Shown here: positions 6,180 to 29,180 of the stretch, in pieces
How the letters are laid out: each line of letters starts with the position of its first letter
How positions within the stretch are numbered: position 1 is the stretch's first letter
Notes under the pieces: generated by a model
Databases searched by the model: none
Seen by the model: the letters and a program-made list of their open reading frames with translations, nothing else
Told to the model about the DNA's origin: nothing
Program-made: the position numbers and the translations under genes
Source: an uncultured Methanosarcinales archaeon
GTDB taxonomy: Archaea; Nanobdellota; Nanobdellia; Woesearchaeales; DATGWN01
Direction of reading: 5' to 3'
Length of the DNA stretch: 64,000 nt
Assembly: GCA_964624275.1 (NCBI GenBank)
Contig: CAZUXP010000001.1
Span: 1,799-65,798 of the forward strand

Positions 6180-6244
6180 TTTCACAATATTTTATTTTCA
6201 CAATCAACTAAACGCTTATAAATTCAAACGATTTATTCATATTA

Positions 6245-6955
6245 ATGACACTTGGCAGAGAAAAGTTTAAAGTATACGGAGATGTATTTGATGCATTTAC
6301 AATTCAAACACTCCATAAATTAGAATCACAAGGGCATATTAGTGAATTAGAGAGTTCTTTGTCTATGGGTAAAGAAGCGCACATTTTTTTAGCAAGACGA
6401 AAAGACGGTATGAAAGTTATTGTTAAGATATATCGTTTACAAAACGCATTTTTTAATAAAATGTATTCGTATATTCGAACTGATCCAAGATATGCTCATT
6501 TAAAAGGAAGAAAACGACAAATTATTTTTCATTGGGTTAGTCGTGAGTTTCGAAACTTGCTTAAAGCTCGTGAAGCAGGTGCTCGAGTTCCAACGCCATA
6601 TACATCACTTCATAATGTCATTGTAATGGAATATATCGGCGATGAAAAAATCGCGTTACAACTTAAAGATTCTCATATTGATGATTTTGAAAGTTTTTTT
6701 GATGATTTAGTAAATCAGTTGCATATTCTTTATAAAAAGGCAAAACTTGTTCATGGTGATTTATCGCAATTTAACATTTTATGTTTAAACCAAAAACCAG
6801 TTTTAATTGATATGAGCCAAACAACGCAAATTGATGACCCAAATGCGCATGAGTATTTTAAACGTGATATGAGTAATTTATTGACTATCGCAAAACGTTT
6901 TGGTCTTGAAAAGACGTTTGAAGACTTAGAAGATAGTATTACAACGTCTGAGTGA
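6245..6955 (+). CDS. rio1: RIO-type serine/threonine protein kinase
   Basis: RIO family signatures: ...SMGKEAHIF...VKIYR..., catalytic LVHGDLSQFNIL, metal-binding IDMSQT. Confidence 0.7.
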   Translation: MTLGREKFKVYGDVFDAFTIQTLHKLESQGHISELESSLSMGKEAHIFLARRKDGMKVIVKIYRLQNAFFNKMYSYIRTDPRYAHLKGRKRQIIFHWVSREFRNLLKAREAGARVPTPYTSLHNVIVMEYIGDEKIALQLKDSHIDDFESFFDDLVNQLHILYKKAKLVHGDLSQFNILCLNQKPVLIDMSQTTQIDDPNAHEYFKRDMSNLLTIAKRFGLEKTFEDLEDSITTSE

Positions 6956-6984
6956 AATGTTTTGAGAATAATTTTTGACAAAAA

Positions 6985-6998
6985 GATTTATATATACA
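6985..6998 (+). promoter_or_regulatory. putative archaeal TATA box/BRE upstream of pilin-like gene
   Basis: tttatatatacat preceded by A-rich BRE-like sequence, about 60 nt upstream of the 7059 start; AT-rich genome lowers specificity. Confidence 0.25.
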
Positions 6999-7058
6999 TA
7001 AAGGGCAGAAGTTACTTTGTGATACACAAACATTCAAACTTCTTTTCATTCGAGGTGT

Positions 7059-8408
7059 GTGAATATGCACACTAAAAAAGCACAAACAGCAACCGAATAT
7101 TTAGTTATTACTGCTGTTGTTATTATTATCGCTTTAATTGTTGTTGGTGTTTTAGGAGGTATTCCTGGTCTTGGTGGTAATATTTCTGAGCAAGAAATTC
7201 GTTTAAAACTCCAAATTCAAGACATTGGAGTGACTGATTATGTTTCTGATTCTTTGAATACTCGGTTATGGCTGACGAATAATAAACAACAAAATGTTCG
7301 AATTGAAGGTATAACTGTAAATGGCAAGAAATGTTCAATTCGCTCGGTAATATTACGAGCTGGTCAAAACCAGCAAGTTGATTGCTGGGGTGTGAAGAAT
7401 TATGACACTTCTGAGTTTAGATTTCCAATAACTATAACGTATTCAGATGTTCAAACTGGTGTATCGTTTACGATAAATGATACTTCAGTTCCACTGGTTG
7501 GAACTGGTCTGGGTGGTACTCGGTTACATACTGGTCAGCAGACTTGTTATGTTGATAATTCAGATACAGAGCAAGATTGTTCAAATGCTGCTGCAGAAGG
7601 TCAAGATGGAAATGTTGATGGAGTTGCGAAATCCTATTCTGATCAAGGAGATAATGTTTTATTAGATGATCATACTGGATTATATTGGACAACAAATGAG
7701 TCTACAAGTATCACTAGAGTTTCTGCTATTTCATATTGTGATGGACTGACACAAGGAGGACATTCTGATTGGAGATTACCTAATAATTTAGAACTTAATA
7801 TTGTGTTGAATAATGATGATGCAACAAATCTTACGCCATCACAATCTTGGGCAACTGGAGATTATTGGTCGACAACAACACAAAGTGTTGGTGCTACCAC
7901 GTATTATTGGAGATTGGTATTACAACCTGGAGTTTTTTATTTTTCACGAGAAAGTTCAGACTCTGCTCAAAACGCAGTTTGCGTAAGAGGAGAAGTCTCA
8001 AGTATTTCATTATCTGACATAGATAAGAATTTTGTGGAGAATGGAGATGGCACAGTTACTGATAGTAACATGGGTATTATTTGGGAAAAAGAATTAAGCA
8101 ATACTAGTACATTAGATTGGCAACAAGCAATTGATCATTGTGAAGCCTTAACAAAAGCAGGATTTTCAGATTGGAGATTACCAACTGTTAATGAAGGATC
8201 AGGGTTAATTGATTATGGTTCAGATAATGCGAGTAATTATTATCCGGATGTGTTTAATTCACCGGGATACTACGATTTATGGACAGGAACTTCTGTATTA
8301 GTTATTGATTATGCTTATACTGTACTTTTAGATGAAGGGCGAGTTAATGTCGATGATAAGAGCTTGTCTCATAACAATCATGCTCGTTGCGTACGTGACC
8401 ACAACTAA
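7059..8408 (+). CDS. type IV pilin-like (class III signal peptide) secreted protein with two DUF1566/Lcl C-terminal (C-type-lectin-fold) domains
   Basis: N-terminus MHTKKA|QTATEYLVITAVVIIIALIVVGVL is an archaeal prepilin-type signal. Two repeats of GL(Y/I)W...W..A...C..LT..G.SDWRLP(T/N)..EL, the second ending ...ARCVRDHN, as in DUF1566. Confidence 0.6.
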   Translation: MNMHTKKAQTATEYLVITAVVIIIALIVVGVLGGIPGLGGNISEQEIRLKLQIQDIGVTDYVSDSLNTRLWLTNNKQQNVRIEGITVNGKKCSIRSVILRAGQNQQVDCWGVKNYDTSEFRFPITITYSDVQTGVSFTINDTSVPLVGTGLGGTRLHTGQQTCYVDNSDTEQDCSNAAAEGQDGNVDGVAKSYSDQGDNVLLDDHTGLYWTTNESTSITRVSAISYCDGLTQGGHSDWRLPNNLELNIVLNNDDATNLTPSQSWATGDYWSTTTQSVGATTYYWRLVLQPGVFYFSRESSDSAQNAVCVRGEVSSISLSDIDKNFVENGDGTVTDSNMGIIWEKELSNTSTLDWQQAIDHCEALTKAGFSDWRLPTVNEGSGLIDYGSDNASNYYPDVFNSPGYYDLWTGTSVLVIDYAYTVLLDEGRVNVDDKSLSHNNHARCVRDHN

Positions 8409-8485
8409 TTGAAATAATTTTTATTTTATCTCACTAGACAACCACTCAAAAAGAATTTATAAATAATTGTAACTTACCTATTATT

Positions 8486-9313
8486 ATGAATGAAAAAGGC
8501 AGATTAATAGTATTTGAAGACAAAAAAATCAGGAGAATCTGGTTTAATGAAGAATGGTATTTTTCTGTTGTTGATGTTGTTGCAGTTTTAACTGAAAGTC
8601 CTACACCCAGACAATATTGGGGAAAAGTCAAAGATAGGGAATTTGTCCAACTTCAACTGTCCCCGATTTGGGTACGGTTGAAATTATTTGCAGAAGATGG
8701 AAAATTAAGGGAAACTGATTGTGCTAATACAAAATCTCTCTTTAGAATTATTCAATCGCTTCCAAGTAAAAAAGCAGAACCTTTCAAACAATGGCTTGCA
8801 CAAGTTGGGTATGAAAGAATTCAAGAAATTGAAAATCCTGAATTAGGTCAAAATCGAATTAAAGAATACTACGAACTCAAAGGCTATCCTAGAGATTGGA
8901 TTGATAAAAGACTCAGGGGAATTGCGGTTAGATAGGAACTAACTGAAGAATGGAAAAACAGACAAATCAAGACCAAACAAGAATTTTCCATTCTTACGAA
9001 TGAAATCAGTAAAGCTACTTTTGGCAAAACTGTAGGAGAATATAAAGAATTTAAACAGTTGCAAAAGAAGAATGAAAATTTAAGAGATCATATGACTGAC
9101 TGGGAGCTTATTTTAACCATGATTGGTGAGAAAGCGACGACAGATATTACAAAAGAAGTCGATTCTCAAGGTTTTAAAGAATGCAAAGATTCTGCAAATA
9201 TTGGCGGGAATATAGCAAAAAGAACAAGAGAGGATATAGAGCGAAATTTAAAAAAAAGTGTTATTTCTAAAAATAATTACCTTTCTCAAAAAAATGATAC
9301 AAAATTGAAATAA
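8486..9313 (+). pseudogene. dinD: DinD/Bro-N-like DNA-damage-inducible protein D homologue interrupted by a single in-frame TAG at 8933-8935
   Basis: ORFs 8486..8935 and 9059..9313 are in the same frame. No other stop lies between 8936 and 9313. The combined 275-codon product matches E. coli DinD (274 aa) in length and sequence (DHMTDWELILTMIGEKATTD vs DHMGSTELAANLFRATQTE). Confidence 0.55.
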
Positions 9314-9389
9314 TTTAATCTTATTCCTAAACCACTAATTCATACCCAAATTCATTAACTTTAAAAAAAGAAACGTATTCTATATAAAT

Positions 9390-10001
9390 ATGACTAATCA
9401 ATCGCCTCCGCAATCAGATAGTATAGATGTTCGTGCAGATATTCGTATTCCAAAAGCGCGAATCGCAGTGTTAATTGGTTCTCAAGGAGAAATTAAAAAA
9501 AAAATTGAAGAAGAAACACATTCAAAACTTGAGATTGATTCTCAAGAAGGTGATGTTGGAATTCAATCAAATGATGGTATTAATTGCTTTTTAGCAAAAG
9601 ATATTGTTCGTGCAATTGGTCGTGGCTTTAATCCAGAATTAGCACTTTTATTAATAAAACCTGAATATACATTAGAAGTTATTGATTTATCAGATGGTTT
9701 TAAATCTAAAAACGCAATGATGCGTGTCAAAGGACGTGTTATTGGTTCAAAAGGAAAAACACGAAATGTTATTGAAAAAACAATGCAAGTTCATGTTTCA
9801 GTATTTGGAAAAACAATTAGTCTAATTGGTGAAGTAGAACGGGTATTAAGTTCAAAGCAAGCAATTGAAATGATTATTGATGGATCTCCGCATTCGTCAG
9901 TCTATAAATGGCTTGAAAAAAAAGAAAAAGCGTTTGCTCAACAAGAAATGCTTGGTCAAACAGTTCAAGTTAAAGACGAGTTTAAAAAGTATATGGAATA
10001 A
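9390..10001 (+). CDS. KH-domain RNA-binding protein (archaeal Dim2/Pno1-like, two KH domains)
   Basis: RIPKARIAVLIGSQGEIKKKIEEET and a second GxxG-type KH region (VIGSKGKTRNVIEKT). Confidence 0.6.
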   Translation: MTNQSPPQSDSIDVRADIRIPKARIAVLIGSQGEIKKKIEEETHSKLEIDSQEGDVGIQSNDGINCFLAKDIVRAIGRGFNPELALLLIKPEYTLEVIDLSDGFKSKNAMMRVKGRVIGSKGKTRNVIEKTMQVHVSVFGKTISLIGEVERVLSSKQAIEMIIDGSPHSSVYKWLEKKEKAFAQQEMLGQTVQVKDEFKKYME

Positions 10002-11301: not shown

Positions 11302-12196
11302 TTTGTAGATATCTGTAAATATGTTTTTTTATGAGAGTAAGTTCTTCATCTAAGCGAAGTTGTGCAATTTGTGCGTTAATATTTCGCATTTGGCTTTCAA
11401 TAACAGATATTTTTTTGTCTTGTGTTTCTTTACGTGCATATAAATCTTTGAGTTCAAGTTCATAATAAGCTGGTTGAAAAGCTGACTCCCCTTTTTTTTT
11501 GCGTTCTTGTTCGATTTTATATTTTGGATCTTGTAGAATGTGTGTTATTTTTGTTTTATATTTATGTAAAATTATTTGTTGTTCATCTATTTGTTGAAGC
11601 ACAATAGATTTTTTTTCTTCAAGTTTTTTTTCCTCATTTTGTTTTTGAAAATATGTTTGTAATTGTTTTTTAAGTGCGTGATATTGTTCGACTTTTTTAT
11701 CATCGATTATCTGGTTATACTGTGTGATATTTTGTTTAATTTTATCTAAAATATGGGTGATTTGCGAATAACTTGTTTTAAAATATTTAAACAATACATG
11801 CTCGACTTGCTTTTTTCTTTGTAAAATATCATCCATTTTTTCACTTAAAATTGTGTAAATTTCTTCTAATTCAGAAAAAGTACTTGATTGTGTTTCAGTT
11901 TGAATATTGGAAAAAAAATCTTGAATTGATTGAATAAATCTTTGGCGATAGTCCAAAACAAGTTTTTTGATGTGATCTTTTGGTTCACTAAATTCTTGTT
12001 GTTGTAATAGATGAATTTTTTCATCAAGTTCTTTTTTATATGTTTTAATTGATTTATAATTTGTTTGTAATTGTAAGAGAATTGGCTCTAAATCGGATTT
12101 AAACTGCAAATCAACCCATTTTGAAAGTTTTTCTAATCGAACAGTTGCTTTGTCGATTTTTGTTTCCTTTCTAAACCATTTTTTGAAAAATATCAT
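11279..12196 (-). CDS. coiled-coil protein, hypothetical
   Basis: 305 aa, K/E/Q-rich heptad-like sequence throughout; no recognisable catalytic motif. Confidence 0.4.
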   Translation of the reverse strand: MIFFKKWFRKETKIDKATVRLEKLSKWVDLQFKSDLEPILLQLQTNYKSIKTYKKELDEKIHLLQQQEFSEPKDHIKKLVLDYRQRFIQSIQDFFSNIQTETQSSTFSELEEIYTILSEKMDDILQRKKQVEHVLFKYFKTSYSQITHILDKIKQNITQYNQIIDDKKVEQYHALKKQLQTYFQKQNEEKKLEEKKSIVLQQIDEQQIILHKYKTKITHILQDPKYKIEQERKKKGESAFQPAYYELELKDLYARKETQDKKISVIESQMRNINAQIAQLRLDEELTLIKKHIYRYLQIEVEILV

Positions 12197-18751: not shown

Positions 18752-19231
18752 TTATAATTCAATTTTTGCAAGTTGACTGTAAAGCTCAATAAATCCATTT
18801 TTGTCAAGATTAATTCCCGCATCAACAATAGTTTTTGCTAACAAGGCGATGTCTTCTTTTTGTGTTTTAATACTATATGGTTTTTCTAACACAGTTTGAA
18901 GATTTTTGAGTGTATATTGACAAACAAATCCGTCATTTACTCTAAATACAACTGGTTTTTTAGTTTTGCTATTAATGATTTTCTGTGTTTTTGTACTATA
19001 CATATAATCAGAGTTGTAGAAATAAAATCCTTTTTGAGTGAATCCGAGTTGTGTAAAAAAGTCTTGAATTATTGTTTGTGGTTGTGTGTGTTGAATTGAT
19101 ACTTGTTGTGTATGCTCAATAATTTTTCCTAAATATTTTACGACTTTTTGAGTCGTTTTTTGTTTTTTCCAAACACTTTTAACTAAATATGCATAAGAGT
19201 TCGTTGAAATCTTTTTAATTCGAATAAACAT
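18752..19231 (-). CDS. hypothetical protein
   Basis: 159 aa ORF, no recognised motif. Confidence 0.35.
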   Translation of the reverse strand: MFIRIKKISTNSYAYLVKSVWKKQKTTQKVVKYLGKIIEHTQQVSIQHTQPQTIIQDFFTQLGFTQKGFYFYNSDYMYSTKTQKIINSKTKKPVVFRVNDGFVCQYTLKNLQTVLEKPYSIKTQKEDIALLAKTIVDAGINLDKNGFIELYSQLAKIEL

Positions 19232-19293
19232 GTTTATGTAAAGATAAATGCATACTTAAATGTTGTGATTCATATTATACTACTGCAAAAAAA

Positions 19294-19956
19294 TTATAGA
19301 AAGTCTAATTGACTTTCTTCTGCAAATGGATTTTCGATTTTTTGTGAACCAAATCGTGTGAAATAATAACATCGTATATTAATAACATCTTCCATTCCAT
19401 CAAATCCAAGCATTGAAATCAATTCTTTTATAATTGTTTTTTCTTGAGTTTTATAACTGTCGTGTATAATAAAGTCAATATCTACTTCGTCATATGTTCG
19501 AACAAGAGCAAAATTAATAAGTGAATCTTTATTCACACCAAATTTCCATTTTTCAACATTGTACTCTTTAAAGTCTCGTTCGATTCGAACAGATATTTTT
19601 CGACTTTTCTCAATCATTAATTTTCGAATATCACTCTGTGTCGGCTGACGTTCTTTTTGCAATGTTTGAATGATTTGTTTCATCTTATCGTATGTTGATG
19701 CTTCAAATTCTTCCGTATGGTTGATACCATTCGGACTATAATACGATCTATATATAATCCAACCGTCTTCAGTCTTTCGTGATTCTATTCTGACATTCAA
19801 ACTACTTTTGTTGTTCTCAAAGCATACGAAGTCTTTTTCAGAAACTGTTTGTACCCATCCCATAATAGAAGGGTAGTTTTGTTTTCTTTTAAAGTTTTTG
19901 GATTTTAGACGTTTCTGTTCAATTATCTCAAATATCCAATAGTTCATTAAAAACAA
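19294..19956 (-). CDS. hypothetical protein
   Basis: 220 aa ORF, no recognised motif. Confidence 0.35.
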   Translation of the reverse strand: MFLMNYWIFEIIEQKRLKSKNFKRKQNYPSIMGWVQTVSEKDFVCFENNKSSLNVRIESRKTEDGWIIYRSYYSPNGINHTEEFEASTYDKMKQIIQTLQKERQPTQSDIRKLMIEKSRKISVRIERDFKEYNVEKWKFGVNKDSLINFALVRTYDEVDIDFIIHDSYKTQEKTIIKELISMLGFDGMEDVINIRCYYFTRFGSQKIENPFAEESQLDFL

Positions 19957-19992
19957 AATTATTTATAAAGAATATATTCTTTTACTTTTCTT

Positions 19993-21684
19993 ATGGGGAG
20001 TAATTACAAAGAATTAGACTCGCAAATGGTTCAAGCGTATTATAATCGTCCCGAAATTATTAAGCAAATTGTAATTCTTTCGCAGAATAAAGAAGTTGTT
20101 GCTTCATTTGATGGTACGAGTTATGCAAAAAGACCTGATATTATTCAGTATGAATCGGATGTGAAAGAACTTATAAAACGTGGAGCGACGTCATTTCATG
20201 CGTCTGAGGAACTCTGGGATGATCCACTTTCTATTCAAACAGGGATGTCACAAAAAGAACTTAGCTCACTTCGAAAAGGTTGGGATTTATTACTTGATAT
20301 TGATTGCCCTTATTTACCTTATTCGCAAATCGCGGCCGATATGGTTATCCAAGCACTTTACGCAAATGGTTTAAAAGATGTAACATGTAAGTTTTCGGGT
20401 AATCACGGTTTTCATATCGGAGTGGTATTTGAAGCATTTCCAAAAGAATTTAATAGTGAATTAACAAAGAACCAATTTCCACTTTTACCGAAAATAATTG
20501 CAGAATATATCATGTATCTTATTGAAAAGCCGTTGCGTGAAAAATTATTGGAGTCTGAATCATCTCATGTTGATTCAATAAAAGTAATTGCACAAAAATG
20601 CGGGTTACAAAAAAATGATATCGTACAAAATGATCAATTAAATGTTTATTCAATCGTTGAGATAGATACGATTTTGTTAACGTCACGTCACTTATATCGA
20701 CAAGCATACTCATTAAATGAAAAAAGTGGTCTTGTATCACTTCCTATAAATCCTAAAAAAGTTCTTTCATTTAAACCAGAAATCGCAAAACCACAAAGTT
20801 GTCCGATATCTCGCTATGGATTTTTACAACGAACAAACATTGATTCATCCCAAAGTATTGTGCTTTTAACAAATGCGTATGACTTTTATTCAAAAAAAGA
20901 ATCCGAAAAAGAAAAACGTAATTTTGCAAAATCACGTTCTAAACAAGCATATGAAGAATTTTTAGAAAAAATACCCGAACATTGTTTTCCTCCCGAAATA
21001 CGTCAATTACTCGGACCATTACCGGATGGGAAAAAAAGAGCGTTATTTATCTTGGTTTATTTTCTTCGTTCATGTCGATATTCAAACGATGAAATAATTC
21101 AAATGATGTATGACTGGAATAAGAAACATCCAGAACCACTTCGAGATGCGTATATGCAAGGTCAGATGAGTCATTTTTTACGCGAAAAACGCAAATTATT
21201 ACCACCTAATTTTGAGACTGGAATATATTCTGATATTTTACGAAAACCAGTACAAAAAGAAAGTCTTCGTTATAAAAATCCAGTAATGTATGCTGAAGTG
21301 ATGTATAAAAATCAATCTCCTAAAAAGACTCGGATTAAAACATTTGTGAGTTGTGTGTTTGCAAAAGATGATTCAATACTTGTCACAAAAAATAAAGAGG
21401 GGTTATATACACTTATATCTCAACCATTGAAAAAAGACGATATTCCAAAAGAAGTGTTAGAAGTTTATTTGCAAAAGAAAAGTTTACTTTTTCGACCGAA
21501 ATTCCTTATAACATATCATTTTACGTATAATAATCATTCTTATAAAAATTTCATGTTTCAAGTTATAGTAAAAGAATTTATTGTGGTTGAAAACTCAGAA
21601 TGGGTTTTGAAAAAAGAAATTACAATGGAAAATTCCACACCTGATGTTTTGTTTTATGTGCAAGATTTTTACCAAATTTCATAA
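19993..21684 (+). CDS. priS: DNA primase small catalytic subunit PriS with C-terminal helical extension (PriS-PriL-CTD-like fusion as in Nanoarchaeota)
   Basis: Catalytic motifs WDLLLDIDCPY (DxD) and FSGNHGFHIGV (SGxRGxH). 563 aa versus about 350 for a stand-alone PriS; no separate priL in the window. Confidence 0.65.
   Translation: MGSNYKELDSQMVQAYYNRPEIIKQIVILSQNKEVVASFDGTSYAKRPDIIQYESDVKELIKRGATSFHASEELWDDPLSIQTGMSQKELSSLRKGWDLLLDIDCPYLPYSQIAADMVIQALYANGLKDVTCKFSGNHGFHIGVVFEAFPKEFNSELTKNQFPLLPKIIAEYIMYLIEKPLREKLLESESSHVDSIKVIAQKCGLQKNDIVQNDQLNVYSIVEIDTILLTSRHLYRQAYSLNEKSGLVSLPINPKKVLSFKPEIAKPQSCPISRYGFLQRTNIDSSQSIVLLTNAYDFYSKKESEKEKRNFAKSRSKQAYEEFLEKIPEHCFPPEIRQLLGPLPDGKKRALFILVYFLRSCRYSNDEIIQMMYDWNKKHPEPLRDAYMQGQMSHFLREKRKLLPPNFETGIYSDILRKPVQKESLRYKNPVMYAEVMYKNQSPKKTRIKTFVSCVFAKDDSILVTKNKEGLYTLISQPLKKDDIPKEVLEVYLQKKSLLFRPKFLITYHFTYNNHSYKNFMFQVIVKEFIVVENSEWVLKKEITMENSTPDVLFYVQDFYQIS
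21643..21671 (+). repeat. left direct repeat (att-like), within priS 3' end
   Basis: Exact 29-bp match to 26220-26248. Confidence 0.7.
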
Positions 21685-21718
21685 GTTTTATAAATCGACG
21701 TCACAGACATCTTTTTGT

Positions 21719-23257
21719 ATGAATTTTAGATCACAAACGTCAACTGAATATTTAATTATCACTGCAGTTGTAATTGTTATTGCATTACTCGTTGTTTCAT
21801 TACTCAGCGATATTCCAAATATAGCGGGTGATATAAAAGCTGATGACGTTGTTTTAGCTACTCAAGTAATTGGAATATCTGAATATGTCATTACTGATGG
21901 TGGTATGCAATTAACGATCCGAAATAATGATGTATCATCAAAAACCATAGTTCAATTAAGCGTTGGAGATATAATTTGTAGTTCATCTGATATACCTATA
22001 ACATTACAGGTAGGGGTAAAAAAAACAATTACTTGTTCAAATATTCGCGATTCCGTTGTCAGTTCAAGTTTTACTGAACCAGTTGTTGCGGTTTATAAAG
22101 ATTTACAGACTGATTCAATCTTTATTCAAAAAGGAAATAATGTTGCGGTGAGTGGTCGCACTGCAAAATTTTCAGTTGAAAATTATATTCCAAGTATAGA
22201 TAAAAGTCAATCGACACTGTATCAAACAGGAAGTTGGACAAATATTAGCGATGAACCACGAAAATTTGTGTTTGAATCATATGATGATGCGATTTTTTTA
22301 TGTAAATATGGACATAAATCAAATATTAACTCTAAAACATTTTCTGAGTGTGATGGTGGAGATGGAAGTCAACCATTTGTTCATATTAAAATGGATAACG
22401 ATACAACCCATAGACCTGAAATAACTGCTCATGCAAAAGGAACGTATGTCTTAGAAGTCAAAGTGCAAAAAAGTGGTGTTGAATCAAAAATATTACGGCA
22501 TGAATTTTATATGTTTCCAATTAGAATGGAAGCATTATGCGTAAATCAGTTTGATAAAACAAATGCGGAATATTTTACTATTGCAAAACAATTTTTACGA
22601 CCAGAGGGTGTTTTTCCTGCAACAACTCAATTAGAAGCTCCATTTTTGAAAATCGATTTTTCAGATGGAACAATTGCTATTCCGATGACTTTTGGAAAAG
22701 AATTGAAATTTAATCCTGAGCGAAATTTAATTTTAATGAAACGAGTGTATGCAAAAGGTGGTGCTAGTATTGCAAGCGATGAAAACTGTCGATTATATGT
22801 TCCTTCAGCGGTTTGCAGAGACTTGTTTGAATACGGAGATGAATTATGTAAAGCTGATGGAGAAGATGAGTTTAATGGAGATTTTAGGTGTGCTGGATCT
22901 TGTCCAAGAGATGAAAGCGGGAGTTTCTATTATTATTTGCATTCTCCGACATACTGGAAACAGGATAGTAACTCATGTGATGCACTTGTATTTAATCGAG
23001 ACGGAAAAGGTGTTTGTATTCAAGGCGAAGAAGTTTTACGAGAAGTGTACAATGTAAAAGATATTTTTTATAAAAATTATATTTTCACAGACAAAATAAA
23101 AGAGTCCTTTATTGATATAAATACTGATTGTTCCGGCGAAATATTTGTTGACAATTGGGGTTATGAATATTGTCAAGCAATTGGAAATACTGTCGCAAAT
23201 TCAATTGAAGAAACATATGGGCTTAATATAATGAACCCTTTACAACTTCCTGAATGA
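21719..23257 (+). CDS. type IV pilin-like (class III signal peptide) Cys-rich secreted protein
   Basis: Probable start ATG 21719 (MNFRS|QTSTEYLIITAVVIVIALLVVSLL, prepilin-type signal). About 20 Cys in the mature region. The ORF track's 21644 start overlaps priS and is unlikely. Confidence 0.55.
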   Translation: MNFRSQTSTEYLIITAVVIVIALLVVSLLSDIPNIAGDIKADDVVLATQVIGISEYVITDGGMQLTIRNNDVSSKTIVQLSVGDIICSSSDIPITLQVGVKKTITCSNIRDSVVSSSFTEPVVAVYKDLQTDSIFIQKGNNVAVSGRTAKFSVENYIPSIDKSQSTLYQTGSWTNISDEPRKFVFESYDDAIFLCKYGHKSNINSKTFSECDGGDGSQPFVHIKMDNDTTHRPEITAHAKGTYVLEVKVQKSGVESKILRHEFYMFPIRMEALCVNQFDKTNAEYFTIAKQFLRPEGVFPATTQLEAPFLKIDFSDGTIAIPMTFGKELKFNPERNLILMKRVYAKGGASIASDENCRLYVPSAVCRDLFEYGDELCKADGEDEFNGDFRCAGSCPRDESGSFYYYLHSPTYWKQDSNSCDALVFNRDGKGVCIQGEEVLREVYNVKDIFYKNYIFTDKIKESFIDINTDCSGEIFVDNWGYEYCQAIGNTVANSIEETYGLNIMNPLQLPE

Positions 23258-23341
23258 ATAGAATAATTGTCGATTTGTTTTATATCTCGGTATAAAACAA
23301 TAATATGGTAGAGTCAATTACTCCAAATACCTATTCATTCA
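23251..23341 (+). ncRNA. nested inverted-repeat element immediately upstream of the RT gene (candidate RT-associated ncRNA or terminator)
   Basis: Outer 11-bp inverted repeat tgaatgaatag (23251-23261) / ctattcattca (23331-23341). Inner perfect 10-bp hairpin ttgttttata-tctcgg-tataaaacaa. Ends 6 nt before the RT start codon. Confidence 0.3.
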
Positions 23342-23347
23342 TTTTTT

Positions 23348-24511
23348 ATGGATATAAAAAAAAAACTAACAAAAATTGCAAAAAAAAAACGACGAAATAC
23401 TGAGAAGTCTCTTGTTTTGAAAATGAGGGAGAGTAACACATTTCAAAAAATATTTCACACAGAAATAAATACTGATTTTATTCTATCTCCAGTTATTTTA
23501 AAAGAAGCAATTATAGAAAGAAAAAAACGGATCATCGTACATTTACAGCCACAAGATCAACTCTATCATGCATATTTAGCAAAACTACTTATCAACTCAT
23601 ATTCTCATAAAAATCTCTATTCCTATACACCAAAAAAATCGTCATATGTTGCAGTTCAAAATTTTGCTAAATTCATTAGAAAGAATACGACAAAAAAAGG
23701 ATTGTATCTTTATTCATTTGATATAAAAAAATATACTGAGAACATTCCACTTCACTCAAAAAGTAAATTGTGGGATTACATTGAAAAATTAGCTTCAAAA
23801 AAAACAATGCTTGCAGTACAAAAATGTTTACGAATAGAAAATACAAATGGTTTTTGCTACTTTAAGGGTATTTTGTTTGGTTCTCCATTAGCACCTCCTA
23901 TTTATAATCTCTATGCAAAAGAAATAGACAAACTTTGTGAAAAGGCAGAATTTGCAATTCGGTATTGTGATGATTTATTGATTGCAACAAAAAATGAAGC
24001 TACATTATTTGCTTTACAAAAAGAAATTCAACAAAAACTTCAAGAATTAGAACTTTCAATAAAAACTGAAAAGGAACAATATGTTCATTTAATAAAAAGT
24101 GGATTTTCTAATTCAAAATGTAGAGGGGCTGAATATATTGACCATTTAGGTTTTCGAATATTTGCAAATGGAACAATTGGACTTCCTCAAAAAAAATTAC
24201 GATCACTTTATTCAGAATTAAAGCAGATTTTGATTCAGTCTAGAAAATTACTGCAAAAAAAATCGTTTGAATATGAATTGCAATTTTATATCTCTTCAAT
24301 TAACTCGTTTTTAACAGATTCGCAATTTCAACAGACATATGTAAGAACGCTTTTAGCTCAAGTAACAAGTCGAAGGCAATTACGAGATATTGATAGAACA
24401 ATTGCATCGTATATCTCGAGGACTTTGACAAAAAGTGATCTTAAAATACCTGCAATTGTGTTATATCAAAAAGGTCTTTTATCCGTTGTAGCTTTGAGGA
24501 ACAATAAATGA
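23348..24511 (+). CDS. reverse transcriptase (prokaryotic retroelement-type; no maturase or endonuclease domain)
   Basis: RT motifs in order: motif 1 ERKKRIIVHL.P.D, motif 2 YLYSFDIKKYTENIP, motif 4 GILFGSPLAPPIYNLY, motif 5 IRYCDDLLIA (YxDD), motif 6/7 HLGFRIF; about 110 aa thumb-like C-terminus. Confidence 0.8.
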   Translation: MDIKKKLTKIAKKKRRNTEKSLVLKMRESNTFQKIFHTEINTDFILSPVILKEAIIERKKRIIVHLQPQDQLYHAYLAKLLINSYSHKNLYSYTPKKSSYVAVQNFAKFIRKNTTKKGLYLYSFDIKKYTENIPLHSKSKLWDYIEKLASKKTMLAVQKCLRIENTNGFCYFKGILFGSPLAPPIYNLYAKEIDKLCEKAEFAIRYCDDLLIATKNEATLFALQKEIQQKLQELELSIKTEKEQYVHLIKSGFSNSKCRGAEYIDHLGFRIFANGTIGLPQKKLRSLYSELKQILIQSRKLLQKKSFEYELQFYISSINSFLTDSQFQQTYVRTLLAQVTSRRQLRDIDRTIASYISRTLTKSDLKIPAIVLYQKGLLSVVALRNNK

Positions 24512-26148
24512 ATTCAAAAGAATGGGTTGAAACAGAAAAACAAAAAGCGCAATCGTTTAAAAGGCTTTATAATCATATTTTGGGAAATTTTTATCCCTAT
24601 TTTTTTTATCGAATACGCTATAGTTTGCTGAGGTTTTCAACATCATATGTATTATTTTTAATCGAATTTTTTATATTACTTCAAACAGTATATGCTTCTT
24701 TTGCTATACCTTTTCTATTTGCAAGAATTGCTATTTCTGGAATCATTACATTTACATGGGGCTCAATTGAAGGTTTACGAGAAAAGTTACGAAAGAAAAG
24801 TATTAGTCTTGCAAATAGTTACATACAAAGAGTTATTTTTTCATATCGACTTATTGCGATACCGTTGTTAATTATAGGATTTTTTCTGTTATATTATGAT
24901 GTGAAAAATGTTATTGGAGTTTTAGCATTTTATCATATATATATTTTATACTTTCTGTTACTAGTTTTTATTGAGTTAGATTATAGTATTCATCAAACAA
25001 GTATTTTTGTGCATAAAAGAGTACACAAAAAAGTATGGCCATATATTGTAATTGACATTTTTGGTACAATGAGTTTGTTTATTGGGTATACAATTGTTGG
25101 TCCTTATGCTTTACCAGTTTCTCTAATTATACATCTTCTTCTAAAGTATATAGTTCATATGTACTACATAAAAAAAAATATGAGTGAATTGTATGGCAAT
25201 ATAGCTTCAAAAAAAAACCTTATCATTTTTCCATTCTCATCGTTATCTGTTGGTTTACTTCACGTTTCAGTTTTTTCGTTACCTTTTATGTATTTGTTTT
25301 CTTCAGGTTTTGCGAATCTTTCAAATACGTATATTATCGTTTCGCTGATTGCAACACCTCTTTTGAGTTTTTCTTTTTTCTGGAGCAAATTATTTTATTT
25401 TGATATCAAAAAGATGCAAAAAGACTGGTTTTTGCTCGGAATCAAAGAACTCTATAAAAAACTATTAGTATATGCAATTTTTATTGGACTTATTCTTTTA
25501 GGAATTAACACCGTAATTCAGTTTTTATATTTTGGAAGAATTGTTCTGTTCTTAGAATTTTCATTTCTTTTTATTTGTTCTTCACTTTTAGGAGTGCTTA
25601 TATTACGCCTCACTACTACGCAGAATATTTTTCAGAGATATGGTCTGATTATTTTATCTATATTTTCAATTGTCTTTTTTGCAGAATGGATACCATATAT
25701 CTTATTTTTGTTTTTTATTTTATTTTTTTTACCAAAAAAAGAATACAAGTATTCTCAAGGTCTTGTTCCTTTGAGTTATTTTGCAAAAAAACCTTCGTTT
25801 GTTTATCAAACAAGTAATCCTACAAAAGTCAAAGAGTTGTTTGTAAAAGAATCAATACCTTTTGCAAAATTTGGAAAGAAAACATTTGTTTCAAGAGAAC
25901 TTCCTTTCTCTTTTTTTCGAGGTTATTTAAAGAACAGCAGAAGACTTTTATCAAAGGATTTTGTTCAAAAAGGATTATTTTTTCAAAAAATTTCAAAAAA
26001 ATATATACTTGTAAAATCATTCGAAAAAGATATATTATATCAAGTACTATTAAAATATAAAAGAAGTAATAATCTTACTATTCAAAAAAATCAATATTAT
26101 GTGAAATGTTCAAAAGGTTTTATAGAAAATATATATGTGAAAAAATAA
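24508..26148 (+). CDS. polytopic membrane protein (at least 10 TM helices) with basic C-terminal soluble tail; translationally coupled to RT (ATGA overlap)
   Basis: 546-aa ORF, unlikely by chance in 25% GC DNA. Multiple 20-25 residue hydrophobic segments; Lys-rich C-terminal 150 aa. Confidence 0.5.
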   Translation: MNSKEWVETEKQKAQSFKRLYNHILGNFYPYFFYRIRYSLLRFSTSYVLFLIEFFILLQTVYASFAIPFLFARIAISGIITFTWGSIEGLREKLRKKSISLANSYIQRVIFSYRLIAIPLLIIGFFLLYYDVKNVIGVLAFYHIYILYFLLLVFIELDYSIHQTSIFVHKRVHKKVWPYIVIDIFGTMSLFIGYTIVGPYALPVSLIIHLLLKYIVHMYYIKKNMSELYGNIASKKNLIIFPFSSLSVGLLHVSVFSLPFMYLFSSGFANLSNTYIIVSLIATPLLSFSFFWSKLFYFDIKKMQKDWFLLGIKELYKKLLVYAIFIGLILLGINTVIQFLYFGRIVLFLEFSFLFICSSLLGVLILRLTTTQNIFQRYGLIILSIFSIVFFAEWIPYILFLFFILFFLPKKEYKYSQGLVPLSYFAKKPSFVYQTSNPTKVKELFVKESIPFAKFGKKTFVSRELPFSFFRGYLKNSRRLLSKDFVQKGLFFQKISKKYILVKSFEKDILYQVLLKYKRSNNLTIQKNQYYVKCSKGFIENIYVKK

Positions 26149-26219
26149 GATTTTTAACTCAACTTTTCAATTATCATTTAAACATAACAGAAATTTTTAA
26201 GACGGAAAACTCCAAATAT

Positions 26220-26248
26220 GATGTTTTGTTTTATGTGCAAGATTTTTA
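26220..26248 (+). repeat. right direct repeat (att-like) with orphan priS 3'-end fragment
   Basis: Exact 29-bp match to 21643-21671; in-frame translation reproduces the priS C-terminal residues followed by TAA. Confidence 0.7.
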
Positions 26249-26291
26249 AAACAATCGGAACACATTTAAATATCTTCCTAACCTCATATAT

Positions 26292-26870
26292 ATGTCACAA
26301 TTACTTGAAAAACCAACAGTTCCTTATTTGGATTTTGACTCAGATAGTTCTTTTTTTCATCTTTATGTTGTAGGATACATGAATAAAACTCAGGGTTTTC
26401 AAATTATTGCGTGTGAAAATGAAAATTTTCATGGGAATAAAATCACAAGTCCTTGGTATTTTATCGTTTCTCAACCAGATTTTTTATTAGCAGCAGTTGA
26501 CACGACTGAATCAACAATACATTTTGCACGAAATGGACTTTATGAATATGCGTACAAAAGTGTTTCTGATTCTTACATGACTGATTTTCGTTCTTATCCG
26601 CGTTCATTAGATCCTTGCGTATATGCAAGTGTTGTAAGAAAAGGTTTTGCAAAAACTATTTTGTCAAAAAGTAATTTGAAAAGTATTGATAGAGTAATGA
26701 GAAGTTCCATTCAAAATAATTCTTCAACAGAAATAACGTTTGAAGTTCTAAAAATTCATAAGGCGCTCGTAGATTCATTTCCAAATGATGTACTATCTGG
26801 ATATTTTCCAAGTTCCCACTTTTTACTTAAAAACGAACATCGTGATTTTACTATTAATGATTTGATCTGA
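26292..26870 (+). CDS. hypothetical protein
   Basis: 192 aa ORF downstream of the insertion; no recognised motif. Confidence 0.35.
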   Translation: MSQLLEKPTVPYLDFDSDSSFFHLYVVGYMNKTQGFQIIACENENFHGNKITSPWYFIVSQPDFLLAAVDTTESTIHFARNGLYEYAYKSVSDSYMTDFRSYPRSLDPCVYASVVRKGFAKTILSKSNLKSIDRVMRSSIQNNSSTEITFEVLKIHKALVDSFPNDVLSGYFPSSHFLLKNEHRDFTINDLI

Positions 26871-26948
26871 TTATGATTTTTTAAAGTCATACCACTGGAC
26901 AACTGCAGAAACGACATTTATAAATAGAATAAAGTCTTATACTCACAC

Positions 26949-29180
26949 ATGCAACTTGCAAAATCATTTCAACCCCGTATTTATCAAGAAACAATCACCG
27001 CACAGTGTGTAAATCAACATTCATTAGTTGTATTGCCAACAGGGCTTGGAAAAACTGCGATTTCACTCTTGGTTGCGTTATATAAACTCAGAAAATGTCC
27101 TGATAAAAAAATCCTCATTTTAGCGCCTACAAAACCTCTTGTGCATCAACATTTAAAATCTTTTATGGAACTTATTGAAAAACCAAATGACGTGGATTTT
27201 GCAGTATTTACGGGAGCAATAAAACCAGAAAAACGAAAAGAATTATTTGAAACAGCAAAAATTATTTTTAGCACACCGCAAGGATTAGAAAATGATATTC
27301 TTTCTTCAAGAATCTCATTAAAAGAGCTGTCATTAATTATTTTTGATGAAGCACATCGAGCCACAGGAGAATATAGTTATGTGTGGATTGCAAAACAATT
27401 TTTAAAACAATCACCGCAAGGAACAATCTTAGGATTAACCGCATCTCCTGGAACTGATAGAGAAACAATTCAAGAAATTAAAGATAATTTATATATTGAA
27501 CATATCGAATACCGTGAACAAACAGATTCTGACGTAAAACCATATATTAAAAAAACTCAAGTTATATTTGATGAACTTGATTTACCGTCAAGTATTTTAG
27601 AATTGCAAACAACCTTATTTAAGTGTTATGAATCGCGAGCAAAACAACTTCAGCAATACGGATATTTTCAATCAAAACCAATTAAATCGATTCAAAAAAA
27701 AGAATTATTGATGTTAACAGGAAGTTTACAAAAAAAGATTGCGCAGCAAGATTTTTCGCCTGAAGTTTTACAAGGGATATCACTCTCTGCACAAATACTT
27801 AAATTATCATATGCGCTTGAACTCTGTGAAACTCAAGGTGTTCCAAGCTTGTATCAATACATGCATAGTTTGGTAAAAGATGCTCAAGCTAAAAAATCAA
27901 AAGGTGTTGTTGCATTAAATCAGGATCCAACATTTCGATTTGCCTATATTAAAACAAAAGAGTTGTACGAGCAAGGAGTTACACACCCAAAATTGTCAAA
28001 ACTTCAAGATATTGTTTTAGAAACATTACAAAAAAAACCGGATGCAAAAATAATAATATTTAGTCAATATCGTGAAACGCTTTCTATGATCATTGAAACA
28101 CTTCAAATTCATAAACAAATTCGTGCATCATTATTTTTTGGCCAAGCAAAAAAAAAAGGTGTTGGAATGTCGCAAAAAGAACAACTACAAACAATTCAGG
28201 ATTTTAAAGATAGCATTCATAATGTATTATGTATGTCAAGTGTTGGCGAAGAAGGGCTTGATATTCCAAGTGTTGATATAGTTTTATTTTATGAACCAAT
28301 ACCAAGTGCAATTCGAACTATTCAAAGAAGAGGTCGAACAGGAAGACAAGACGAAGGGCTTGTTCGAGTATTATGTGCAAGAAATACTCGAGATATTGCG
28401 ATACGGTGGATTGCACAAAAAAAAGAAAAAAATATGTATTCAGTGTTAGAAGAGTTTACAAAACCAAAAAAAACAACATTATCACATTTTACAACTGCAA
28501 AAAAAGAAGTTGCACCTCTTTTAACTCTTTACGCAGATTCGCGAGAAAAAAAAAGCGGGGTGTTACGCAAACTTCATGATTTAGATATTCATATTCAAAG
28601 TCAAAAACTTCAAATAGGTGATTTTCAGCTATCAAAAGATGTTGTTGTTGAATTTAAACATGTCAAAGATTTTGTCGATTCTTTACTTGATAAACGATTA
28701 TTTCATCAAATTCAAGCATTAAAGCAAACAGTAAAAAAACCACTCATTATAATTCAAGGTGAAAAAAGTATTTACGGAGTTCGAAATATACATCCTAACG
28801 CAATAAACGGAATGCTTGCAACAATTACTGTATCATATCAAATACCAGTTTTATTTACTCGAAGCGATTCAGAAACTGCAAATTTACTTTACACAATTTT
28901 AAAACGTGAACAAGATCAATCTCAAAAACCATTTATCGCGCAAACAATACATAAACAACAAACAAAGAAAGCTCAATTAGAGCAAATTGTGTCTCAAATT
29001 CCAAACATTGGACCACTTGTCGCTCAAAAACTTCTCAATCATTTTGAATCATTACAAAATTTAAGTAATGCGTCTATTGAAGAAATATTGTCTATTCCAG
29101 GAATTGGAGAACAGCGCGCAACAGATATTTATACATTCTTTCGGATACGATATTTAGATCCAAATAATTTTTTGGAATAA
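26949..29180 (+). CDS. hef: Hef helicase-nuclease (archaeal FANCM/XPF homologue: SF2 helicase plus ERCC4 nuclease plus (HhH)2)
   Basis: Walker A VLPTGLGKT, DEAH box FDEAHRATG, helicase motif VI QRRGRTGRQ. C-terminal ERCC4-like region with GDFQLSKD...VEFK and HhH (IPGIGEQRATDIY). Confidence 0.8.
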   Translation: MQLAKSFQPRIYQETITAQCVNQHSLVVLPTGLGKTAISLLVALYKLRKCPDKKILILAPTKPLVHQHLKSFMELIEKPNDVDFAVFTGAIKPEKRKELFETAKIIFSTPQGLENDILSSRISLKELSLIIFDEAHRATGEYSYVWIAKQFLKQSPQGTILGLTASPGTDRETIQEIKDNLYIEHIEYREQTDSDVKPYIKKTQVIFDELDLPSSILELQTTLFKCYESRAKQLQQYGYFQSKPIKSIQKKELLMLTGSLQKKIAQQDFSPEVLQGISLSAQILKLSYALELCETQGVPSLYQYMHSLVKDAQAKKSKGVVALNQDPTFRFAYIKTKELYEQGVTHPKLSKLQDIVLETLQKKPDAKIIIFSQYRETLSMIIETLQIHKQIRASLFFGQAKKKGVGMSQKEQLQTIQDFKDSIHNVLCMSSVGEEGLDIPSVDIVLFYEPIPSAIRTIQRRGRTGRQDEGLVRVLCARNTRDIAIRWIAQKKEKNMYSVLEEFTKPKKTTLSHFTTAKKEVAPLLTLYADSREKKSGVLRKLHDLDIHIQSQKLQIGDFQLSKDVVVEFKHVKDFVDSLLDKRLFHQIQALKQTVKKPLIIIQGEKSIYGVRNIHPNAINGMLATITVSYQIPVLFTRSDSETANLLYTILKREQDQSQKPFIAQTIHKQQTKKAQLEQIVSQIPNIGPLVAQKLLNHFESLQNLSNASIEEILSIPGIGEQRATDIYTFFRIRYLDPNNFLE

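Follow-up and report, generated by a model that had tools for sequence, protein, structure and literature searches.

A Reverse Transcriptase Cassette with a Folded RNA, a Membrane Protein, and an Exported Protein: Probable Archaeal Form of an Unnamed DRT-like System

Organization of the Locus

The window, as we call the whole stretch of 64,000 nucleotides that was analyzed, carries on an archaeal chromosome a compact cassette of about 4.5 kb in which the gene for a secreted Cys-rich protein (sec), a folded RNA of 91 nt, a reverse transcriptase (RT) gene, and the gene for a protein with ~10 transmembrane (TM) helices follow one another (Table 1). Most of this layout had been recognized in an initial annotation made from the sequence. 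The RT ORF is as it was called, with its RYCDD active site intact; a 4-nt ATGA overlap couples it to the membrane-protein gene; a hydropathy scan finds 10 TM segments in the partner that had been credited with at least 10 helices; and both arms and the inner hairpin of the nested element upstream of the RT lie where they had been placed. The description of the locus as a two-gene module has to be widened, however, because the secreted upstream protein is a conserved third gene, present in 3/3 archaeal and 29/79 bacterial loci. Class III signal peptides, Hef, and a primase in which PriS and PriL are fused support assignment of the host to the Archaea.

The loci compared comprise 79 bacterial ones, retrieved with the RT subset sharing FYAR[YF]GDD and so a sample biased toward that motif, and three archaeal loci (the window, L001, and L003), which together with near-identical copies of L003 make up the archaeal clade. 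When collections of genomes, metagenomes, and viral contigs were scanned with the RT, no close relative turned up.

Table 1. Features of the cassette and its flanks in the window
Feature	Position	Strand	Basis or location
52-nt direct repeat, upstream copy	21620..21671	+	3' end of primase gene
Exported protein gene (sec), 512 aa	21719..23257	+	ORF and start called; pilin-type signal
Structured element, presumed ncRNA	23251..23341	+	Fold and three-locus covariation
RT gene, 387 aa	23348..24511	+	Pfam RVT_1
Polytopic membrane protein gene, 546 aa	24508..26148	+	Hydropathy scan
52-nt direct repeat, downstream copy	26197..26248	+	Spacer between membrane-protein gene and next gene

The Reverse Transcriptase

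The RT matches RVT_1 (E 6.4e-21, residues 57-270) and no other Pfam family, in agreement with the earlier description of a stand-alone enzyme that lacks a maturase, endonuclease, or Cas domain. None of its catalytic residues D125, D208, and D209 (RYCDD) varies among 50 relatives. Among PADLOC profiles the best is RT_UG26 (5.5e-20, 69.5 bits), on which residues 8-366 align to positions 22-370 of 398, but this score is about that of a generic RT profile (68.6 bits) and of the group II profile TIGR04416 (69.3 bits against a cut-off of 300), and it falls short of a strong UG26 match. The Drt9 profile follows at 2e-12, covering only part of the protein, and UG4 at 4.6e-11 over residues 8-290. All of the best profiles (UG26, Drt9/UG28, UG4, and UG18) belong to class 2 of the UG/Abi RTs, which consists of UG2, UG4, UG17, UG18, UG26, UG27, UG28, UG38, and UG39 (PMC9226505). 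When relatives are included, the family further matches the UG17, UG39, Drt2, and UG27 profiles, with Drt9 as its second-best named profile and a UG26 score that reaches only 2e-36 in the best relative. The family is broad: at least 150 relatives were found at 1e-44 to 1e-21, and clusters at 50% identity likewise number 150 or more. Bacterial members measure ~440 aa, which makes the archaeal RT a short one.

An AF2 model of the RT (pLDDT 74) has a fingers-palm region and a helical C-terminal part. Foldseek returned DRT9 as the best match to this model (E 3e-13, TM 0.63 over the whole chain), all of the top six entries being DRT9 RT-ncRNA complexes, with GsI-IIC as the second-best structural match. 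In a profile search of the PDB, the portion after the palm aligned only with DRT9 and DRT2. Near the C-terminus, Tyr373 is kept throughout the archaeal clade and is frequent in the wider family; it is at most a candidate counterpart of the priming tyrosines of DRT9. Group II and CRISPR-RT profiles and structures score nearly as high as those of class 2. An origin among CRISPR-associated RTs was rejected, as those profiles match the RT core only, no cas genes occur among the Pfam-scanned ORFs around the locus, and the window has no Rfam match. The comparison with clade profiles that the initial annotation had called for places the RT outside the group II maturases, with no intron RNA. Together, the profile and fold matches point weakly to a distinct clade allied to the class 2 UG/Abi RTs and within no named group, the profile matches themselves being weak.

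The RNA Elements

Between the genes for the exported protein and the RT, an 11-bp closing helix (P1) pairs tgaatgaatag (23251-23261) with ctattcattca (23331-23341). Its 5' arm runs over the final codons of the sec gene and their stop and is followed by the single-stranded segment AAUAAUUGUCGAU, the P2 hairpin (23275-23300; ttgttttata / tctcgg / tataaaacaa, loop UCUCGG), a small P3 hairpin (23311-23323), and the single-stranded segment CCAAAUAC, which directly precedes the P1 3' arm. That arm ends 6 nt before the RT ATG, a distance of 6-10 nt across the three archaeal loci. The element folds at -21.6 kcal/mol (z = -2.95), and only 1 of 200 shuffles folds as well. Homologues were located in L001 (2432-2526) and L003 (6523-6603). 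In the three-sequence alignment 95% of cells pair versus 37-49% in slid controls, and eight pairs are changed on both sides versus 1-2 in those controls, a count reached by none of 500 shuffles. P1 is retained in L001 and L003 with 3 compensatory pairs. Both scored helices, P1 and P2, thus persist in homologues, as the initial annotation had proposed to check; P3 is present in each of the three sequences, and covariation scoring covered P1 and P2 only. Conservation across the three loci extends to the loop (UYUMGG) and to the motifs AAUA..GUCG and CCAAAUAC, and a covariance model of the element (R1) finds exactly one copy per archaeal locus at 97-121 bits. No U tract outside the helices is common to all three archaeal RNAs. 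Judged by its fold and covariation, the 91-nt element is a conserved structure and a presumed ncRNA.

Many bacterial loci have a structured RNA of their own that ends just before the RT start. At least 24 of them have a hairpin, GAGAC-YGCG-GUCUU, at 50-180 nt before the RT; it is nearly invariant across phyla, as is usual for a site that a protein recognizes. When actinobacterial sequences are aligned, this hairpin is enclosed by a closing helix of 12 bp (29 pairs, 7 of them compensatory), and a covariance model for the bacterial RNA (R2) gives full-length matches in other phyla that end 2-23 nt before the RT start. Single-sequence folds of bacterial loci show closing helices of 10-19 bp that are unrelated in sequence, and from the end of the bacterial closing helices to the RT start there are 2-28 nt. 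For myxobacteria, upstream regions aligned with MAFFT and folded with RNAalifold gave the apical hairpin and nothing else, so the long-range helices of myxobacteria rest on single-sequence folds and on R2. Because R1 finds no bacterial element and R2 no archaeal one, the two sets of RNAs are alike in layout only and are not established homologues.

The Membrane and Exported Proteins

The 546-aa membrane protein has ~10 TM helices at residues ~40-410, followed by a soluble C-terminal tail of ~135 aa. The initial annotation had asked whether homologous pairs of RT and membrane protein co-occur elsewhere, and they do: a homologue adjoins the RT in 74/79 bacterial loci and in 3/3 archaeal loci, although the L001 copy is incomplete at a contig end. 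In L003 it is P0004, with 38% identity and in the same position. The ATGA overlap of RT stop and membrane-protein start also recurs in L001, L003, and most bacterial loci. Comparison of the archaeal and bacterial downstream proteins by hhalign gave a probability of 99.7% (E 3e-25, 365 columns), and an HMM of the bacterial proteins matches the 546-aa protein at 4e-32. No match to this protein was found in Pfam, NCBIfam, PADLOC, PHROGs, or the PDB. Its AF2 model, built from a 2-sequence alignment, is unusable (pLDDT 40).

The exported protein begins with a class III (type IV pilin-like) signal, MNFRSQTSTEYLIITAVVIVIALLV, after which comes a conserved Cys-rich domain of ~350 aa ending ...LQLPE; the exact 512-aa product is already in database records. 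In L001 (59% identity) and L003 (31%) a homologue occupies the position right before the RT gene, and the 29 bacterial loci mentioned above encode, ahead of the RT, proteins with the same domain (BLASTP to 1e-12), in which six Cys residues are invariant. These proteins vary in their N-terminal parts, and their C-terminal domain is conserved. Searches of Pfam, NCBIfam, PADLOC, PHROGs, and the PDB (the last by family profile) gave no match for sec. On homology and position, the exported protein is a conserved third protein component of the cassette. To our knowledge, no DRT, retron, or other described RT system has an exported protein partner.

Distribution and Genomic Context

About 80 bacterial genomes contain this combination of parts, so the system is real and widespread. 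Its hosts include Myxococcota, Bdellovibrionota, Legionellales, Rickettsiales, Chlamydiae, and DPANN-like archaea, so that a module first presented as an archaeal novelty turns out to belong to a large and mostly bacterial family. Nor does genomic context back the suggestion that it is defense-associated. In the window the neighbors of the cassette are a primase, Hef, and tRNA synthetases; only a handful of the 143 genes flanking the bacterial loci match PADLOC models, the commonest Pfam matches being housekeeping; and a search of 2.9 million viral contigs with the family pattern found no match. With flanking genes that are mostly housekeeping, a defense role is unproven. The cassette sits behind the primase gene in both the window and L001, and cassette and primase alike are 55-59% identical between the two. 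Having diverged as much as the primase and kept its position, the cassette looks like a stable host function and not a fast-moving defense gene, and a shared primase-side position at 55-59% protein identity argues against recent movement.

Comparison with Named Systems

In its general plan, a structured RNA with an RT and a partner protein, the cassette follows DRT and retron systems, as the initial annotation noted. UG2/DRT2 and UG28/DRT9 depend on an ncRNA upstream of their RT (PMC9226505), and in DRT9 it is scaffold and template both (PMC12483538). The present system resembles DRT9 (UG28; Salmonella SenDRT9, PDB 9nlv/9ioa/9vma) in having its ncRNA immediately upstream of an RT without extra enzymatic domains. 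However, the two RTs share only 17-18% sequence identity, and the DRT9 RT of ~490 aa works as RT and ncRNA alone with an occasional SLATT partner (PMC9226505), whereas here the 10-TM protein is near-obligatory and the exported protein frequent. DRT9 uses a universally conserved uridine tract (U4) as template and C-terminal priming tyrosines (PMC12483538), features without a demonstrated counterpart in the present system, and it is proven to be anti-phage, in contrast to the lack of a defense-island signal here.

Other class 2 groups share different traits. UG26 has 35 members, of which 9 are accompanied by a Vsr-like YcjD endonuclease (PMC9226505); its profile aligns end to end with our RT and is of similar size, but YcjD is missing here and a membrane or exported partner is unreported for UG26. 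UG4 is associated with fimbrial protein genes and shows no defense enrichment (PMC9226505). It is thus an RT of probably the same class linked, like ours, to genes for surface or pilus-type exported proteins without a defense-island signal, but its profile match is weaker than that of UG26 or Drt9, it is mainly plasmid-borne, and its partners are probably of different families. The order of RT gene then membrane-protein gene is also found in DRT1/UG1 and UG5-large (RT-nitrilase), whose RTs, unlike ours, are class 3, at least 1200 aa long, and nitrilase-fused, with a small TM partner that is only sometimes present and with no ncRNA known. Literature on UG26, higher UG numbers, DRT11, DPANN RTs, and pilin-linked RTs yielded no description of the present system.

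Proposed Working of the System

We read the cassette as the archaeal form of a conserved, unnamed, DRT-like RT-ncRNA system of four parts that include a membrane and an exported partner, and we put the probability of this reading at roughly 0.6. The proposed working follows the precedent of DRT2 and DRT9, in which the RNA upstream of the RT is scaffold and template. The RNA between the exported-protein and RT genes would fold into a closed three-helix structure, the RT would bind it through the conserved loop and the single-stranded motifs, and a DNA product would arise either because the RT copies a short stretch of the RNA or because it is primed on it. The membrane protein, almost always beside the RT, may act at the membrane, either alongside the RT-RNA complex or in a step after it, and the exported protein may have an extracellular or envelope-side function as a sensor or a target. 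As for biological purpose, a conflict or abortive-infection type response seems most probable, this being the weakest step of the proposal.

Alternative Readings

The nested hairpin might instead be only a cis-acting mRNA element, either a terminator or stabilizer at the 3' end of the exported-protein message or a mask over the ribosome-binding region of the RT that sets translation of the RT and membrane protein; the RT would then resemble class 1 UG/Abi enzymes, using other substrates or no template at all. The overlap of the 5' arm with the end of the exported-protein gene, the 3' arm that in each of the three loci stops shortly before the RT gene, and the similar placement of the bacterial closing helices are all in keeping with such a role, as are the six T that follow the 3' arm in the window. 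These T are not kept in L001 (tcattttc) or L003 (tctttact), however, and a plain terminator or occluding stem would have no need of a conserved hexaloop, single-stranded motifs, a second and third helix, or, in bacteria, an apical hairpin almost invariant across phyla. We consider a purely cis-acting element unlikely, and a cis-acting role and a template or scaffold role are not mutually exclusive. A retron would make of the same RNA a minimal msr-msd closed by a1/a2, with the RT priming from the 2'-OH of a G adjacent to the closing helix to form branched msDNA and the membrane protein as a restrained toxic effector. In favor of a retron are the inverted repeat that encloses hairpins right before the RT gene, the membrane partner coupled to the RT, and the conserved GUCG after the P1 5' arm (which in itself is no evidence of branching). 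The label retron-like fails for the RT, which neither profile nor fold places in the retron clade. PADLOC RT_II-A (4e-07) and RT_I-A (1e-06) head a range of weak matches down to 2e-03, as against 5.5e-20 for UG26, and NCBIfam retron_St85 scores 33.7 bits against a cut-off of 235. In the Foldseek list, retron RTs (1e-08) rank 19th or lower, after DRT9, group II, G2L4, DRT2, and DGR RTs. The motif-7 region of the RT reads HLGFRIF, like that of group II and UG RTs. Typical retron ncRNAs are longer than 91 nt, the present RNA being much smaller, and we know of no retron type with a pair of 10-TM and exported proteins. A retron is accordingly improbable.

Position downstream of exported-protein genes whose products vary at the N-terminus and are conserved at the C-terminus would also suit a DGR-like diversifier, in which the RT rewrites part of the surface protein encoded upstream, and the hosts include Legionellales and DPANN-like archaea, where DGRs are common (for DPANN archaea, PMC8632793). 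This idea is largely refuted and highly improbable. No template/variable repeat pair exists in 19000-29000 or within any homologous locus, in line with the initial annotation; the sole repeat, of 52 nt, has mismatches that are not adenine-specific; no Avd-like gene is present; DGR RTs are farther than DRT9 by fold; and the cassette of the L003 population is 99.95% identical across assemblies from different samples (2 mismatches in 4375 nt). The same repeat, with 87% identity, the last 29 nt identical, and 0 expected by chance, brackets the cassette and could mark a mobile retroelement inserted behind the primase gene, and the equal scores of the group II and UG26 profiles (69 bits) and the second place of GsI-IIC by structure could point to a decayed or ORF-only group II intron. 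Against an intron, there is no Rfam match at gathering score in the window and none at E<=1 in 21500-26500, the RT stays far under the 300-bit group II cut-off, and it has no maturase or endonuclease tail. Against mobility, the cassette carries two unrelated conserved genes, its primase-side position is common to L001, and the window holds neither a second cassette nor further copies of the repeat. We regard both origins as extremely improbable.

Implications

A bolder reading than the four-part DRT-like system preferred here, possible but on the doubtful side, is that of a new class of RT system at the cell envelope, serving contact with prey, host, or symbiont in place of an intracellular anti-phage device. 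Together with the exported Cys-rich protein, the co-translated 10-TM protein would handle a nucleic-acid product of the RT-RNA complex at the membrane or across it, and the predatory, intracellular, or episymbiotic hosts, housekeeping neighborhoods, and vertical stability would fit. Housekeeping context and vertical stability also suggest a possible non-defense role for a domesticated RT. Each characterized prokaryotic RT-ncRNA system (retrons, DRT2, DRT3, DRT9, and DRT10) has given unexpected chemistry. The RT clade described here is unnamed in profile libraries and in the searchable literature and apparently represents an undescribed system, with two partner families without known match, one of them exported. 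It spans Bacteria and the DPANN-like Archaea, in which UG/Abi-type RTs are reportedly rare. Being small, the archaeal version is convenient to express and dissect.

The reverse transcriptase cassette

The window holds an archaeal, miniaturised form of a widespread, unnamed system whose parts are a reverse transcriptase (RT), an RNA and a membrane protein, to which an exported protein is often added. The initial annotation had proposed a candidate retron-like or defence-associated RT that formed a two-gene module with a membrane protein and was preceded by a nested hairpin. That observation holds up and is of greater interest than was claimed, though of another kind, as the archaeal form of a widespread system. 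Both ORFs and their ATGA overlap are present where they had been placed, the nested-hairpin element exactly so; in place of the two-gene description, the cassette has three genes, and the RNA falls between the first and the second. The additional gene encodes an exported protein that is kept in 3/3 archaeal loci (59% and 31% identity to the window copy). The protein starts with RSQTSTEYLIITAVV, a signal of class III that resembles those of type IV pilins; its Pfam match is sub-threshold, and the motif recurs in L001 and L003, the two related archaeal loci. RVT_1 was the one Pfam match of note in the RT (E 6.4e-21, residues 57-270), and none of 50 aligned relatives departs from the catalytic aspartates D125, D208 and D209, the last two within RYCDD. 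By a hydropathy scan, the 546-aa protein has 10 membrane segments. Neither the membrane nor the exported partner had a match in Pfam, NCBIfam, PADLOC, PHROGs or the PDB.

Coordinates of features in the window and in related loci
Locus	Feature	Position	Strand	Detail
Window	Primase gene	19993-21684		563 aa, one chain; weak matches to small- and large-subunit primase domains
Window	Direct repeat, first copy	21620-21671		3' end of primase gene
Window	Exported-protein gene	21719-23257	+	512 aa; directly upstream of RT
Window	snoR77Y match	23157-23242	+	below gathering
Window	Outer arms of RNA element	23251-23261, 23331-23341	+	3' arm stops 6 nt short of RT ATG
Window	Inner hairpin	23275-23300	+	loop tctcgg
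Window	Further small hairpin	23311-23323	+
Window	RT ORF	23348-24511	+	387 aa
Window	Membrane-protein ORF	24508-26148	+	546 aa; ATGA common to its start and RT stop
Window	Direct repeat, second copy	26197-26248
Window	Hef-type helicase/ERCC4 nuclease gene	26949-29180
L003	Direct repeat copies	5000-5150, 9420-9570
L083	Direct repeat copies	7282-7397, 11693-11808		another contig of L003 population
L003	VRR-NUC and MNT-HEPN genes	550-1910		L083 2773-4133
L004	Hairpin	5088-5106		bacterial locus
L004	Prepilin-variant genes	5318-6004, 6004-7344, 7328-9364
L032	RNA copy just before RT	2888-3028		bacterial locus
L032	Second R2 match	8075-8206

Class of the reverse transcriptase

The RT proved to be neither retron-like, as first suggested, nor firmly group II. 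Among PADLOC profiles its best match was UG26 (5.5e-20, full length), followed by a generic RT (1.4e-19), a CRISPR-type RT (6e-16), Drt9 (2e-12) and UG4 (5e-11), with retron profiles at 4e-07 or worse. NCBIfam scores lay far below their cut-offs for group II (69 bits against 300), retron St85 (34 against 235) and Drt3a (31 against 200). When 50 family members were scanned, the named profiles that came up most often and scored best were UG26 (2e-36), Drt9 (5e-34), UG17, UG27, Drt2, UG4 and UG39, all class 2 UG/Abi groups (Mestre et al. 2022, PMC9226505). A family profile matched Cas6-RT-Cas1, GsI-IIC and DRT9 about equally among PDB sequences, and beyond the palm it aligns only with DRT9 and DRT2. 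The AF2 model of the RT (pLDDT 74, pTM 0.72) is nearest to DRT9 RT-ncRNA complexes (E 3e-13, TM 0.63), then to GsI-IIC, G2L4, DRT2 and a DGR RT, with retron RTs ranked lower. The profile scores and the fold ranking thus argue for a separate clade that is nearest class 2 UG/Abi and belongs to no named group.

A conserved RNA element in the archaeal loci

Folded as RNA, the window element reached -21.6 kcal/mol (z = -2.95), and the spacer 5' of the RT in L001 and L003 keeps its architecture with a different sequence. The covariation sought for these helices was found. In the three-way alignment, 95.2% of cells are paired for the two specified helices against 37-49% in slid controls, where partners were moved by 1-3 columns, and 8/21 pairs are altered on both sides against 1-2 in controls, a number reached by 0/500 shuffles. 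Across the three archaeal loci, the hexaloop (UCUCGG, UUUCGG, UUUAGG) and single-stranded AAUA..GUCG and CCAAAUAC-like stretches are kept, and each sequence has a third hairpin, small and GC-containing. A covariance model of the element (R1) found one copy per archaeal locus and no other match. Because of the pairing, the both-sided changes, the kept loop and single strands and the one copy per locus, we infer that the archaeal element is a structure under selection. The window has no tRNA match and no Rfam match at gathering score; a hit of 34.5 bits (gathering threshold 52, E 8e-4) to snoR77Y, a C/D-box snoRNA family of plants, falls within the last part of the exported-protein gene, directly ahead of the element, and is probably a composition artefact of AT-rich sequence.

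Relatives in archaea and bacteria

Close relatives of the cassette occur in only two other archaeal lineages. L001 (RT 58% identical) has the order primase, 510-aa protein, RT and start of the membrane protein; L003 (RT 48%, membrane protein 38%) has a 492-aa protein, RT and membrane protein in a neighborhood that differs from that of the window. An exhaustive HMMER search with the RT returned 700 matches, of which the best 150 (1e-44 to 1e-21) are about 430-450 aa long and align end to end at 25-30% identity; among the relatives, one carries a Legionellales annotation and another a Woesearchaeota one. The family as a whole numbers roughly 350 or more members. A bacterial sample was assembled from L004 and 78 loci retrieved via the common motif FYAR[YF]GDD, and family HMMs were run over all ORFs of the loci. 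By record title, the 78 hosts are mostly from predatory, intracellular or otherwise cell-associated lineages (Myxococcota/Polyangia, Bdellovibrionota, Legionellales, Coxiellaceae, Rickettsiales and Waddlia), with Gaiellales/Actinomycetes and others also represented, in a sample drawn by one peptide pattern and possibly biased by it.

The pairing of RT and membrane protein recurs, as the initial annotation had wished to see checked: a membrane-protein homologue adjoins the RT in 74/79 bacterial loci, nearly always immediately 3' and often with the same 4-nt overlap. Compared profile to profile, archaeal and bacterial membrane proteins match over 365 columns (probability 99.7%, E 3e-25). In 29 bacterial loci, the protein encoded 5' of the RT has a Cys-rich domain, about 350 aa long, in common with the archaeal 512-aa protein; pairwise E-values reach 1e-12 to 1e-15, six Cys are invariant and the ...LYLPD/E end is kept. 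Each of these bacterial proteins has a signal peptide, in which a lipobox-like Cys is common, and their N-terminal parts vary and can contain EGF repeats or Ig-like domains. The exported protein is replaced in four loci of alphaproteobacterial type by a prepilin-type protein (GFTLxE) that overlaps the RT start.

The bacterial loci have RNA of their own. At least 24 loci from several phyla have a near-invariant hairpin, GAGAC-YGCG-GUCUU, 50-180 nt 5' of the RT start. In L004, which has the prepilin variant, it reads GAGAC-CGCG-GUCUU and precedes the prepilin gene instead of separating that gene from the RT, so the RNA would come before a three-gene operon. The consensus fold of an actinobacterial alignment has 29 pairs, 7 of them compensatory: a closing helix of 12 bp surrounds two hairpins and a variable region, and a kept single strand stands just before the 3' arm. 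The covariance model built on this alignment (R2) gave full-length matches in loci of Bdellovibrionales and Myxococcota, with ends 2-23 nt short of the RT start; single-sequence folds there show closing helices of 10-19 bp and unrelated sequence. The 91-nt archaeal element shares this layout of closing helix, enclosed hairpins and kept single strand before the 3' arm; in both RNA types one enclosed hairpin has a conserved loop and the RNA end abuts the RT start. R1 had no match to the bacterial element and R2 none to the archaeal one, so the likeness is one of layout only. Neither RNA is in Rfam. Besides the copy expected just before the RT, L032 has a second full-length R2 match (E 2e-4), about 2 kb beyond the membrane-protein gene on its 3' side.

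Function

In plan the system is like DRT systems, its enzyme being closest to DRT9 and UG26. An upstream ncRNA is required in the class 2 UG/Abi systems UG2 and UG28 (PMC9226505), and the DRT9 ncRNA is both scaffold and template (PMC12483538). By these precedents, the upstream RNA would most likely be needed by the RT, as scaffold and template in the manner of DRT9. The proposed association with defence finds no support in the context: the window cassette has housekeeping neighbors, the family motif was not found in a viral collection, and the recurring PADLOC matches among 143 genes flanking the bacterial loci were only mad2/3/8, AriA, DrmC and TIR, each in 2-3 genes that are putative defence genes. 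Transporters and metabolic enzymes account for the commonest Pfam families in the flanking genes. Sequence, as far as it goes, excludes DGR-type diversification, since no TR/VR pair was found near the window cassette, as already noted in the initial annotation, or in any locus, and assemblies of the L003 population differ by 2 mismatches in 4375 nt. No description of the system was found in the searchable literature, which is no proof that none exists.

Genomic setting

The window is chromosomal and archaeal, and a DPANN host is plausible. Further flanking genes encode Met-, Cys- and another class I tRNA synthetase, and the primase has a C-terminal extension of about 110 aa without a match. 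In both the window and L001 the cassette stands behind the primase gene. This common position and the like divergence of primase (55% identity), exported protein (59%) and RT (58%) speak for a cassette that has long been resident and vertically inherited. A 52-nt direct repeat, unique in the window, brackets the three genes; its copies are 87% identical, with the last 29 nt identical, and the second, if translated, would yield the C-terminal peptide of the primase, ..DVLFYVQDF*. A TATA-like box lies about 15-20 nt 3' of each copy. The perfect 29-mer is unexpected because the cassette position is old, being common to L001 at 55-59% protein identity. A direct repeat with another sequence flanks the L003 cassette too. 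Its copies, about 116-130 nt long and 84-85% identical, take in the TATA box and the stretch encoding the class III signal peptide, once for the exported-protein gene and once for the next downstream gene; every contig of the L003 population stops at this repeat. Among the archaeal loci, the only defence-like neighborhood hint is at L003, where a VRR-NUC nuclease gene and a nucleotidyltransferase/HepT (MNT-HEPN type) pair precede the cassette by 3-4 kb.
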